The notes beneath the pieces were generated by a model, which searched no databases, was not told where the DNA came from, and was given only the letters and a program-made list of their open reading frames with translations. Shown here in pieces: positions 13,594 to 44,278 of a stretch of 64,000 nucleotides of DNA (position 1 is its first letter; each line of letters begins with the position of its first letter). Location: NCBI RefSeq assembly GCF_988243305.1, contig NZ_OZ547136.1; one strand, 5' to 3'. The position numbers were made by a program, and so were the translations under genes.

Positions 13594-15102
<1,509 letters not shown>

Positions 15103-15182
15103 GGGACTTAGCCTGCGGCGGTTTTGTTTGGCTTCAGCAGCGGGTTGCGCTCCCTTAATGTGCCTCGCCATATAAATTGAAT

Positions 15183-15220
15183 GGTGCAGGGGGCGGCCAA
15201 TCGCCGCCACCCCCTGCACC
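15183..15220. repeat. Long GC-rich palindrome in the putP–efeU intergenic region
   Basis: ggtgcagggggcgg...ccgccaccccctgcacc inverted repeat. Confidence 0.4.
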
Positions 15221-15755
15221 CCGGGCTCTGGCGAACAAAATCGCCGCTGCGCGGTACCTTCAGCTTATCCCCTTCGGCTACCGGGTCGGGCGCGAGGTAA
15301 TGTCCTATAAGACGCGCCCTCAGCCCACATCCATGTGGGCTGCCCTGGCCTTCGGGGAACGCTTCAGCGACTTTGACGCCACCAACACCCGAGCTGTTAT
15401 TATGTTCCGGGCAAAAAGTTAGATTTGATAATCGCGGATGGACGAAATTGCTTGATACACCCGCTTATCAGTTTTACATGGAAGCTCTGATGCATTGAGT
15501 CTGGACAGTTTTGTCGGCTGGATAAGGCGTTTACGCGGCATCTGGCAAGAACACATGGCTCGTTGTAAACAATCCCATCTTTGTACCTGGAATAATCGTT
15601 TATATCCCTTGCCATTACCTCTCTTTGTTTACATTCCAACATCATTTTATAAACATTCCGCTTGTATTTTTCTTTGCCGTAATGATAATCGCTATCACTG
15701 CGATTTACTTTTCTTTGCATAGATTGACTCAGAAAAACGTTTAAGGGTGGGTGGC

Positions 15756-16586
15756 ATGTTTGTTCCATTTCTCATTATGTTGCGCGAAGGACTTGAAGCC
15801 GCGCTGATTGTCAGTTTGATTGCCAGCTATCTTAAGCGTACCCAGCGAGGCCGATGGATTGGTGTGATGTGGATTGGCGTGTTGCTTGCCGCTGCGTTGT
15901 GCCTGGGCTTGGGTATCTTCATTAACGAAACCACCGGCGAATTTCCGCAAAAAGAACAGGAACTGTTTGAAGGTATCGTGGCGGTGATCGCCGTGGTGAT
16001 CCTTACCTGGATGGTTTTCTGGATGCGCAAAGTGTCGCGCAACGTCAAAGTACAACTGGAGCAGGCAGTCGATAGCGCATTGCAGCGTGGGAATCATCAT
16101 GGCTGGGCGCTGGTGATGATGGTCTTTTTTGCCGTTGCAAGGGAGGGGCTGGAGTCGGTCTTTTTCCTGCTGGCGGCGTTTCAACAAGATGTCGGGATCT
16201 GGCCGCCGCTGGGTGCAATGCTCGGTCTTGCTACAGCCGTGGTGCTCGGCTTCCTGCTCTACTGGGGCGGTATTCGCCTCAATCTTGGTGCATTTTTTAA
16301 ATGGACCAGCCTGTTTATTCTCTTCGTCGCCGCAGGGCTGGCGGCTGGTGCCATTCGCGCATTTCATGAAGCCGGATTGTGGAACCACTTTCAGGAAATC
16401 GCCTTCGATATGAGCGCGGTGCTCTCAACTCACTCGCTGTTTGGCACGCTGATGGAAGGGATTTTTGGCTATCAGGAAGCGCCGAGCGTCAGCGAAGTCG
16501 CCGTCTGGTTTATTTATCTCATCCCGGCGCTGGTGGCATTTGCTCTGCCACCACGCGCAGGGGCGACAGCGTCTCGCTCCGCGTAA
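15756..16586 (+). CDS. efeU: Ferrous iron permease EfeU (FTR1 family), apparently intact
   Basis: Uninterrupted ORF 15747..16586 with REGLE motifs; start placed at MFVPFLIM. Confidence 0.8.
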   Translation: MFVPFLIMLREGLEAALIVSLIASYLKRTQRGRWIGVMWIGVLLAAALCLGLGIFINETTGEFPQKEQELFEGIVAVIAVVILTWMVFWMRKVSRNVKVQLEQAVDSALQRGNHHGWALVMMVFFAVAREGLESVFFLLAAFQQDVGIWPPLGAMLGLATAVVLGFLLYWGGIRLNLGAFFKWTSLFILFVAAGLAAGAIRAFHEAGLWNHFQEIAFDMSAVLSTHSLFGTLMEGIFGYQEAPSVSEVAVWFIYLIPALVAFALPPRAGATASRSA

Positions 16587-19370: not shown

Positions 19371-20435
19371 ATGGTAACGTCCTGTACTGGACATGTTTTA
19401 GATAATCAGCGCGCCACCACTCGCGGAGATTTCTCCTCCGGTAGTCATCTCGTCACTTTGTATTTTCAACCTCATCCTTTCTTTTCATGTGTTACCGACG
19501 CCGTAAACGGTGCGCGTAGCCGTTTTTCGGCATTTTATCCAAAAGCAAACTATGGCTTACAAGGAAGCCAACCCTCTGATGTTCGTGCGCATAATCGCGC
19601 TGCCAACGGCGCGTGTGATGAATACAAACAACTCAAGGTGCTCTCCATGGGAAGACAAAAAGCAGTGATCAAAGCTCGTCGCGAGGCAAAACGTGTGCTG
19701 AGACGGGATTCGCGCAGCCATAAGCAGCGTGAAGAAGAATCGGTCACCTCGCTTGTGCAGATGAGCGGCGTAGAAGCCATTGGTATGGCCCGCGACAGTC
19801 GCGATACCTCGCCCATCCTCGCGCGAAATGAAGCGCAATTGCACTATCTGAAGGCTATTGAGAGTAAGCAGCTGATATTCGCCACGGGCGAAGCCGGGTG
19901 CGGAAAAACCTGGATCAGCGCAGCAAAAGCGGCAGAGGCCCTGATACATAAGGATGTCGACAGGATTATCGTCACCCGTCCAGTTCTGCAAGCCGATGAA
20001 GATCTTGGCTTCTTACCTGGAGATATCGCAGAAAAGTTTGCTCCCTATTTTCGTCCGGTCTACGACGTGCTGGTCCGGCGCTTAGGGGCTTCCTTTATGC
20101 AGTACTGCCTGCGACCGGAAATAGGGAAGGTGGAAATTGCGCCGTTCGCCTATATGCGTGGACGTACCTTTGAAAATGCAGTCGTCATTCTTGACGAGGC
20201 GCAGAATGTGACTGCCGCGCAAATGAAAATGTTTTTAACCCGCCTCGGGGAGAACGTGACGGTTATCGTCAACGGTGATATCACGCAATGCGATTTGCCT
20301 CGCGGCGTGCGCTCCGGATTAAGTGACGCGCTGGAACGTTTCGAAGAAGATGAAATGGTCGGGATCGTCCGATTCGGTAAAGAGGATTGCGTACGTTCGG
20401 CACTTTGCCAACGTACGCTACATGCATACAGTTAA
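19371..20435 (+). CDS. phoH: PhoH, phosphate-starvation-inducible ATPase
   Basis: 354-aa ORF with Walker A GEAGCGKT. Confidence 0.85.
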   Translation: MVTSCTGHVLDNQRATTRGDFSSGSHLVTLYFQPHPFFSCVTDAVNGARSRFSAFYPKANYGLQGSQPSDVRAHNRAANGACDEYKQLKVLSMGRQKAVIKARREAKRVLRRDSRSHKQREEESVTSLVQMSGVEAIGMARDSRDTSPILARNEAQLHYLKAIESKQLIFATGEAGCGKTWISAAKAAEALIHKDVDRIIVTRPVLQADEDLGFLPGDIAEKFAPYFRPVYDVLVRRLGASFMQYCLRPEIGKVEIAPFAYMRGRTFENAVVILDEAQNVTAAQMKMFLTRLGENVTVIVNGDITQCDLPRGVRSGLSDALERFEEDEMVGIVRFGKEDCVRSALCQRTLHAYS

Positions 20436-38218: not shown

Positions 38219-38545
38219 ATGACTAAAAATACTCGTTTTTCCCCCGAAGTCCGTCAACGGGCAGTCCGTATGGTTCTGGAAAGTCAGAGCGAATATGACT
38301 CACAATGGGCGACAATTTGTTCCATTGCTCCAAAGATTGGCTGTACGCCGGAGACTCTGCGTGTCTGGGTTCGCCAGCATGAGCGGGATACCGGGGGCGG
38401 TGATGGAGGGCTCACCACCGCTGAACGTCAGCGTCTGAAAGAGCTGGAACGTGAAAATCGTGAACTGCGCCGCAGTAACGATATCCTTCGCCAGGCTTCC
38501 GCTTATTTTGCGAAGGCGGAGTTCGACCGCCTCTGGAAAAAATGA
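38219..38545 (+). CDS. IS3-family transposase OrfA (copy 1)
   Basis: 108-aa HTH/leucine-zipper OrfA ([19 protein letters not shown]...). Confidence 0.85.
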
Positions 38546-39432
38546 TGCCACTGCTGGATAAGCTGCGTGAGCAGTACGGGGTCGGACCGCTATGCAGCGA
38601 ACTGCATATTGCCCCGTCAACGTATTACCACTGTCAGCAACAGCGACATCATCCGGATAAACGCAGTGCCCGTGCGCAGCGCGATGACTGGCTGAAGAAA
38701 GAGATACAGCGCGTATACGATGAAAATCACAAGGTATACGGTGTGCGTAAAGTCTGGCGTCAGTTGTTACGGGAAGGTATCAGAGTGGCCAGATGCACTG
38801 TGGCACGTCTCATGGCGGTTATGGGACTTGCCGGTGTTCTCCGGGGTAAAAAGGTCCGTACGACCATCAGCCGGAAAGCCGTTGCCGCAGGCGACCGCGT
38901 AAACCGTCAGTTCGTGGCAGAACGACCTGACCAGCTGTGGGTGGCTGATTTTACTTACGTCAGCACATGGCGGGGCTTCGTCTATGTGGCGTTCATCATT
39001 GATGTGTTTGCCGGATACATCGTGGGGTGGCGGGTCTCATCGTCCATGGAAACGACATTCGTGCTGGATGCACTGGAGCAGGCGTTATGGGCCCGTCGAC
39101 CGTCCGGCACGGTCCATCACAGTGATAAAGGTTCTCAGTATGTATCGCTGGCCTACACACAGCGGCTTAAGGAAGCCGGATTACTGGCATCAACAGGAAG
39201 TACAGGCGACTCGTATGACAACGCGATGGCGGAGAGCATCAATGGTCTTTACAAAGCGGAGGTAATACACCGTAAGAGCTGGAAAAACCGTGCAGAAGTG
39301 GAACTGGCCACACTCACGTGGGTGGACTGGTATAACAATCGACGATTGCTGGAAAGGCTGGGCCATACTCCTCCGGCAGAAGCAGAAAAAGCTTATTATG
39401 CTTCCATCGGAAACGATGATCTGGCAGCCTGA
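38542..39432 (+). CDS. IS3-family transposase OrfB, DDE integrase core (copy 1)
   Basis: 296-aa ORF overlapping orfA, typical programmed-frameshift arrangement. Confidence 0.85.
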
Positions 39433-43873: not shown

Positions 43874-44278
43874 TCAGGCCTCCGCCGGTAGCCGTAATCG
43901 ATTTGCCGAGCCGCAGACGGCGATTTTGCTTCTGACCACCTCTTTCATGGCGTCCATGCCAACCCGCATGTAAAAGCGCGGATCGTTGCTCTGCTGATTT
44001 TCAGCAAACCAAGCTTTGATAGCGTCAGAGAAGGCGATCTTCAACTCGGTTGCAACGTTGACTTTGCAGACGCCTGGCCCAATGGTGCGACGAACATACT
44101 CATCCGGCACATCGCTCGCCCCATGCAGCACAAAGCGGGCAAAACAAACGGCATAAATTCCATTTGTTTTGCCCGCTTTGTGCTGCCTCACCATTTCTGT
44201 CAGATGTTTCACTTTCCTCTCCAGTTCAGATTGCTGCGATATTAATCTTTCGTTTTGTTTCAGTTGATACTGCGTCAT
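43874..44278 (-). pseudogene. Fragment resembling the C-terminus of a class II tagatose/fructose-bisphosphate aldolase
   Basis: C-terminal portion ([11 protein letters not shown] ... [13 protein letters not shown] ...) is aldolase-like; N-terminal portion unrelated. Confidence 0.45.

Follow-up and report, generated by a model that had tools for sequence, protein, structure and literature searches.

TwoAYGGAY (RF01731) is an RNA motif whose function is unknown and whose closing stem, P1, is often very long (Weinberg et al., 2010, PMC2864571). Its original alignment (2010 supplement, PMC2864571) contains at least five copies from Psychromonas ingrahamii, a gamma-proteobacterium, and no E. coli or Klebsiella accession was found among the entries listed. 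The motif has been proposed to bind CsrA (Gardner and Eldai, PMC4333381). Rfam places it together with CsrB in clan CL00106. The SELEX consensus for CsrA is RUACARGGAUGU, with the GGA held in a short loop, and CsrB, with the repeat CAGGA(U/C/A)G, offers about 18 CsrA sites. The REP/BIME, Box C and ERIC/IRU repeats form a second group for comparison: GC-rich palindromes in intergenic gaps near gene 3' ends, variable between strains in presence, absence and orientation. The element described here shares these properties of the second group and is related in sequence and fold to TwoAYGGAY. A literature search for its sequence, for the classical E. coli repeats and for CsrA with the neighbouring genes returned nothing relevant. 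The old E. coli K-12 repeat class 'RSA' (152 bp, 6 copies) would not fit it.

The window, a stretch of 64,000 nucleotides, is E. coli chromosome and 99.8% identical to strain ST2747. It carries a GC-rich inverted repeat in the gap between putP (ORF 13594-15102) and efeU (ORF from 15747). The arms, 15183-15197 (GGTGCAGGGGGCGGC) and 15206-15220 (GCCACCCCCTGCACC), are 15 nt each and 93% complementary, and enclose an 8-nt loop, caatcgcc. Their sole mismatch, C:A on the plus strand, becomes a G.U pair on the minus strand, and the predicted hairpin energies are -31.1 kcal/mol (plus) and -35.9 kcal/mol (minus). A scan for 15-nt arms with at most one mismatch and a loop of 3-12 nt returned two sites in the window (15183-15220 and 44135-44176) and none in 20 dinucleotide-preserving shuffles. 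The palindrome is real and not a product of chance, and the first-pass annotation, which had placed a perfect or near-perfect inverted repeat with stems of about 14 bp between putP and efeU, described it accurately. The 15-mer arm has four matches in the window with up to three mismatches, against 1.9 expected; two of the four are the palindrome itself.

The hairpin does not stand alone. When the intergenic region was compared by BLAST with 5426 complete E. coli genomes, its part at about 15186-15398 matched several places per genome. Aligning copies from four E. coli loci, Klebsiella and Pseudocitrobacter set the limits of a unit of about 270 bp, over which copies from different loci and genera remain similar from about GCTTCAGC...GTTGCGCTCC to ...GACGCCACCAACACCCG. 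The palindrome at 15183-15220 is one conserved hairpin of this dispersed structured element, the parts of which are listed in Table 1. On the minus strand, 8 bases separate it from the core.

Table 1. Parts of the repeat element in the putP-efeU gap, in window coordinates.
Feature	Position	Strand	Description
Whole repeat unit	~15131-15399	-	GCTTCAGC ... CACCAACACCCGAGCTGT; limits of similarity between loci and between genera
GC-rich hairpin (helix 11)	15183-15220	-	3' of the core on the sense strand
TwoAYGGAY-like core	15229-15381	-	Long closing helix enclosing two adjacent hairpins with loop GGA
Hairpin 1	15321-15342	-	CAGCCCACAU-GG-AUGUGGGCUG; AUGGAU at the tip; 10-nt perfect arms
Hairpin 2	15288-15319	-	GGGCGCG...CGCGCCC; loop region UAUAGGACAUU in the window copy
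Closing helix, sense-strand 3' half	15230-15245	-	GGCGAACAAAATCGCC on the plus strand; partner 15367-15380
Closing helix, sense-strand 5' half	15367-15380	-	GCGACTTTGACGCC on the plus strand
3' domain remnant	15144-15182	-	GTTGCGCTCC and an AT-rich stretch
11-bp deletion site	15185-15186		Allele-specific; GCAGGGAGCGC missing, between GCAGGG direct repeats
Segment deleted in most E. coli putP-efeU copies	15216-15340		~125 bp; retained in the window

With the element alone as query, between 1 and 9 places were found in 5425 of the 5426 genomes (median 3). The E. coli loci are putP-efeU, dusC-yohP, aqpZ-lysO and sstT-alx, and copies are often located between gene 3' ends. Positional conservation, the lack of which the first-pass annotation had tied to a routine REP family member, is evident at the locus studied here: in essentially all E. 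coli, putP-efeU holds a copy, either complete or with an internal deletion. K-12 has intact copies at dusC-yohP (NC_000913.3, about 2,229,120-2,229,390) and aqpZ-lysO (about 915,010-915,285), and its putP-efeU copy is a deleted one. Klebsiella is richer in copies (13 places in one K. pneumoniae chromosome), and when one genome per species was scanned for an exact pattern, the element was also located in E. albertii, E. whittamii, other Escherichia and Pseudocitrobacter. A few matches lie on short metagenome-assembled and other contigs assigned to unrelated taxa and are probably contamination. The 64-kb window contains no second copy, including by search with the covariance model described below, and the RefSeq records examined, that of K-12 MG1655 among them, carry no annotation of the element.

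RNAalifold analysis of 32 distinct copies predicted the same helix set on both strands, with compensatory double changes at 17-18 pairs. The structure comprises 12 helices and 76 predicted pairs. In the minus-strand alignment 98.7% of 2417 cells were paired, against 38-45% when the 3' partners were slid; changes on both sides were seen at 18 pairs, against 9.8 ± 1.4 in shuffles (0 of 500 reached 18) and 0-3 after sliding. Single-sequence minimum free energy gave z-scores against shuffles of -3.9 on the plus and -4.9 on the minus strand. The palindrome, helix 11, accounts for 12 pairs, of which four show compensatory changes; in the EcN, L032 and L040 copies, for instance, a C-G pair has become A-U. 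The closing helix 2 has 13 pairs, three of them compensated (G-C/C-G 17:15 and A-U/C-G 26:6 among these), and helices 2-3 together have 18 pairs with six; helix 12 has 8 pairs, with TTGCGCTCC invariant. In hairpin 1, CATGGATG is the same in 32/32 copies and the stem covaries (A-U/G-C 16:16), and hairpin 2 (helices 8-9) shows a compensatory A-U/G-C exchange (17:15). The loop CAUGGAUG of hairpin 1 and the GGA of hairpin 2 are likewise invariant across the 32 copies over covarying stems; the sense strand of each copy has 4-9 GGA in total, and the two in these loops are invariant. That the loops stay constant above stems that covary speaks for a partner that recognises them by their sequence.

The choice of sense strand rests on two observations taken together. 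With helix 1 set aside, the helices contain 34 G.U cells on the minus and 12 on the plus strand, a modest asymmetry, as it counts cells and not events in a structure itself predicted on the minus strand; helix 1, which has four G.U pairs, forms on the minus strand only. Combined with a match to Rfam that occurs solely on that strand, this asymmetry led us to take the minus strand as sense.

That match concerns TwoAYGGAY. The window copy itself returned no Rfam family, TwoAYGGAY included, even at E ≤ 10, and none of the E. coli and Klebsiella copies reached the RF01731 gathering threshold of 43 bits. The copy at dusC-yohP in K-12 nevertheless aligned over the whole RF01731 model with 30.9 bits (E 0.0048), the best of 4227 families there, and the Pseudocitrobacter copy over positions 1-168, again the entire model, with 29.6 bits; both alignments lie on the strand equivalent to the window minus strand. 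For the reciprocal search a covariance model, R1, was built solely from the 154-nt core of the present family. Besides the window core (15229-15381, minus strand; 171.5 bits, E 1.4e-35), R1 recovered L020:2181-2334 with 66.6 bits (E 2e-12), in a region that holds an RF01731 match of 49.2 bits, above the threshold, and the equivalent neighbours L034:5633-5786 (65.4 bits, E 3.8e-12) and L042:1541-1693 (70.6 bits, E 2.7e-13). Homology with TwoAYGGAY is thus supported in both directions, by the RF01731 alignments, although these score below the Rfam cutoff, and by the R1 matches to accepted members.

The regions recovered in this way (L020:2181-2372, L034:5633-5830 and L042:1500-1693, from Pseudocitrobacter and an enterobacterium) are divergent TwoAYGGAY elements, which we term type B. 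Type B adjoins a type A copy in opposite orientation, with 5' ends facing and about 60 nt apart. Type B copies carry a G5/C5 hairpin just 3' of their core, in which two of them differ by a compensatory change, and this shared hairpin makes the palindrome a conserved module of the enterobacterial branch. Two inverted copies with facing 5' ends, about 310 bp apart, were also observed on a short E. coli-like metagenome-assembled contig (L019:1-124 and 436-589).

In architecture the family follows TwoAYGGAY: two adjacent hairpins with GGA terminal loops are joined by an AG linker, CG follows the second of them, and P1 closes the core as a long stem. Like TwoAYGGAY, the family occurs several times per genome and has no fixed gene association. 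Loop 1 is exactly AUGGAU in 32/32 copies. Loop 2 retains its GGA in 32/32, as AGGGAU, AGGGAC or CAGGAC, or as UAGGAC in the window, none of which is strictly AYGGAY; its wider loop region elsewhere in the family reads UACAGGGAUGU, UACAGGACGU or UGCAGGGACGC. The family differs from TwoAYGGAY in scoring 30-31 bits, under the 43-bit cutoff, in having extra conserved modules (the G5/C5 hairpin and the third helix), in its high GC content (0.62-0.69) and in its hosts, Escherichia, Klebsiella and Pseudocitrobacter. It is a TwoAYGGAY-related family that falls outside RF01731 by the Rfam cutoff and is unannotated in the RefSeq records examined. We consider it highly probable that the element has been identified correctly, that its fold is conserved and that it is homologous to TwoAYGGAY.

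The copy in the window is not typical of this family. In all other copies the hairpin reads GGTGCAGGGAGCGC-GCAGGGGGCGGC...GCCGCCCCCTGC-ACC, with a perfect 12-bp stem (GCAGGGGGCGGC / GCCGCCCCCTGC) around an 8-nt loop, and the stem is preceded by GGAGCGC, which in intact copies pairs with an invariant GCGCTCC 40-50 nt away. The window allele is without 11 bp (GCAGGGAGCGC), so that GGT is joined to the stem and extends it from 12 to 15 bp; the same deletion took out the GGAGCGC half of the neighbouring helix 12. The unusual length of the palindrome is therefore a by-product of the 11-bp deletion, which also destroyed the third helix of this copy. This exact allele occurs in about 350 of the 5426 E. 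coli genomes. The full-length element (at least 80% of a 661-nt query covered) is present at putP-efeU in 947 of the 5426, and sampled lower-ranked records, K-12 included, covered 78% of the query in two pieces separated by an internal deletion of about 125 bp, which eliminates most of the core. Other internal deletions were found at other loci (L011, L012). The frequency of internal deletions argues that at least the copy at this locus is dispensable. Antisense to putP and efeU, without a promoter-like site and one helix short, the window copy is most likely an inactive relic in the course of decay.

We propose that the palindrome is one module of a non-coding, dispersed structured element of about 270 bp, whose sense strand would be the minus strand of the window and would run from the two-hairpin core through 8 bases to the G5/C5-rich hairpin and on to a third helix (GCGCUCC/GGAGCGC). 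Intact copies would act as RNA, with the conserved GGA loops as a putative protein-binding surface, and the GC hairpin may serve as a 3' stabiliser or represent a former or degenerate terminator. The family occupies intergenic gaps, lies in either orientation in one slot in different strains, and decays through internal deletions. A TwoAYGGAY-like structured repeat, with the window copy a relic, is the best explanation overall, and we put it at about an even chance.

For the intact copies, a CsrA-type protein-binding RNA module would be the most likely function, albeit low in absolute terms. Hairpin 2 of the K-12 type (UACAGGGAUGU) agrees with the CsrA SELEX consensus at 11 of 12 positions, hairpin 2 of other copies contains CAGGACG, as in the CsrB repeat, and the sequence of hairpin 1 is CACAUGGAUGUG. 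About 28 nt separate the two GGA motifs, a spacing that would be compatible with a CsrA dimer bridging two sites. The display of GGA motifs in short hairpin loops recalls the Csr/Rsm decoy RNAs; unlike these, the element has only two well-presented sites, where CsrB has many more, has no promoter or terminator that could be recognised beside its copies in the window, K-12 and L020, and is dispersed, multi-copy and variable in orientation. Binding of CsrA by the element is doubtful. The complete proposal, an unannotated multi-copy RNA family of TwoAYGGAY class in Escherichia and Klebsiella, K-12 included, with two invariant GGA hairpins that bind CsrA, seems to us quite unlikely. If it were true, the copies scattered over 3' untranslated regions would together act as a CsrA sponge that varies between strains, or the element would be a selfish one exploiting CsrA, and strains would differ in the tuning of their Csr regulon as copies are gained, lost or inverted.

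The behaviour of the copies in genomes bears on the alternative that survives best, namely that the element is a non-autonomous mobile sequence, present or former, of no benefit to the cell, with the palindrome functionless here and the structure kept only because it serves the element's spread or because the copies are of recent origin. Its variable copy number (1-9 per E. coli genome), its recurrent internal deletions and the lack of a promoter-like site favour such a reading, as does the fluidity of the loci themselves. At dusC-yohP, its orientation in EcN-type strains is the reverse of that in K-12-type strains. Between lysO and aqpZ, the flanks in K-12 and strain fEC.1 are 97-99% identical and enclose a segment of about 350-390 bp in which the element points in opposite directions, with 91% identity and different extremities. 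The different extremities and the identity of only 91% rule out a simple inversion, and the difference between the two alleles is a replacement or re-insertion. At sstT-alx, strain XH990 has the element and K-12 a different GC-rich repeat. The latter, GAGAGGGTCGGGGTGAGGG together with its inverse, sits at the exact place of the XH990 element in the K-12 gap (L043:2546-2945) and is presumably Box C; this slot is a hot spot at which repeats of different families are found. The L041 copy is a mosaic of three locus types, which suggests exchange between loci. In Klebsiella, 15/15 aligned copies have a REP after them on one side and several are also preceded by one, so that the element is found among REP copies.

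Other observations fit a selfish repeat less well. The element lacks the terminal inverted repeats of a MITE (miniature inverted-repeat transposable element), as its ends (GCTTCAGC.../...CACCCGnGCnGT) are not inverted repeats of each other, and no linked transposase was seen among the copies inspected. No target duplication was seen at the lysO-aqpZ and sstT-alx junctions, a weak test given that no true empty site was recovered; the rimO locus in Klebsiella likewise yielded no clean empty site. A phage origin was rejected, with no match in the phage collection, and so was a plasmid origin, since the 'plasmid' matches inspected were chromosomal fragments filed as plasmids. Loops that stay invariant across genera on stems that covary point to selection on a binding surface and not on hairpin stability alone. 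We regard a purely selfish repeat as possible but rather unlikely. One K. pneumoniae copy (L016:4936-5259) lies directly between prophage tail-fibre genes and chromosomal genes, and the element or its REP cluster may mark the prophage junction there.

Occurrence in either orientation at the same locus would also be explained, as would orientation independence in general, if the inverted repeats acted as DNA, extruded as cruciforms or folded into single-stranded hairpins to which a nucleoid or recombination protein binds, similar to what has been proposed for REP/BIME. The prediction of the helices on both strands with similar covariation and the association with REP in Klebsiella are in keeping with this. 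However, long-range helices that close a 150-nt multi-branched domain fit an RNA better than extrusion from a duplex, as does a helix that pairs solely through G.U on one strand, and the homology is to a motif curated as RNA. A role at the DNA level is very unlikely, and the TwoAYGGAY-like structured RNA repeat remains the preferred reading.

The first-pass annotation had also considered a regulatory structure, which was not confirmed: a consensus scan of 14900-15900 gave no promoter-like site, and strains differ in the direction in which a given locus carries the element. The same type of scan found no sigma-70-like promoter beside the copies in the window, K-12 and L020, inspection of hexamers gave nothing consistent between loci, and no canonical terminator lies beside the copies examined. 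The sense strand runs antisense to both putP and efeU. A more specific version of the idea holds that the GC-rich hairpin acts at transcript ends, as a REP or intrinsic terminator that ends or stabilises putP or antisense transcripts. Copies lie mostly between gene 3' ends, and a loose terminator scan flagged the minus-strand hairpin followed by ATTCAATTTA (15 pairs, 12 of them G-C). This signal, however, belongs to the deleted allele only: the T-rich tail abuts the minus-strand stem because of the 11-bp deletion, and intact copies have GCGCTCCCTGCGCC at that place and no terminator-like site. On the plus strand, the sense of putP, the hairpin is followed by CCGGGCTCTGG, without a T run. A separate stem at 15075-15128 (CCGCCG...CAGG / CCTG CGGCGG), which overlaps the end of putP, runs past its stop and is followed by TTTTGTTT, is probably the putP terminator, and putP transcripts may therefore not reach the element. 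A transcript-end function would moreover leave the conserved 150-nt core unexplained, and we give it little credence. The flank GCGGCGGTTTTGTT was observed to be 93% complementary to the element-internal AACAAAATCGCCGC.

Of the REP/RIP-type element that had been suggested from the window alone, the dispersed intergenic repeat with a conserved structural feature holds good, but the kind does not. A REP or RIP unit was rejected on copy number (1-9 per genome, not hundreds, with no other significant arm match in 64 kb) and on size (about 270 bp and 12 helices against a palindrome of about 35 nt), and the element has no sequence similarity to the REP consensus. The REP of the putP-efeU gap is 15505-15545 and not the palindrome at 15183-15220; this degenerate REP-like sequence (TGTCGGCTGGATAAGGCGTTTACGCGGCATCTGGCAAG) lies about 100 bp from the element and gives a partial, sub-threshold match to naRNA4.

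Three further candidates were rejected: protein coding is excluded by the 1-nt indels and the 11-bp and 125-bp deletions that break frames between copies (an ORF traverses one Klebsiella copy), GGAGCGC as a Shine-Dalgarno sequence by its being half of a helix with no conserved start codon after it, and for a tRNA or tmRNA derivation ARAGORN reported no genes among the 30 copies listed.

The family is of interest as a 270-nt element with 18 covarying pairs that has no annotation in the RefSeq records examined, K-12 included. It ties TwoAYGGAY, an orphan motif known since 2010, to genetically tractable hosts and accounts for part of the strain variability in several E. coli intergenic regions. 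For this window the significance is modest: the copy is ordinary and damaged, and the length of its palindrome a by-product of deletion.

Some other features of the window and its neighbourhood were recorded. The annotation of efeU, the neighbour of the element, differs between strains: frameshifted in APEC20/16 (L002), a pseudogene in K-12 (L006) and an ordinary CDS in 1070/13 (L001). The only other long palindrome of the window, at 44122-44186, is a perfect 24-nt inverted repeat, GCAGCACAAAGCGGGCAAAACAAA ... TTTGTTTTGCCCGCTTTGTGCTGC, with a loop of about 14 nt. Matches at Rfam gathering level lie at 20237-20430, 38500-38616, 54195-54262, 56724-56938, 58468-58584 and 59696-59819, and comprise Ysr251 (minus strand), a tRNA-like match that is marginal at 30.7 bits, STnc100, STnc490 and two identical ALIL pseudoknots, which are IS3-type frameshift signals and imply two IS copies.
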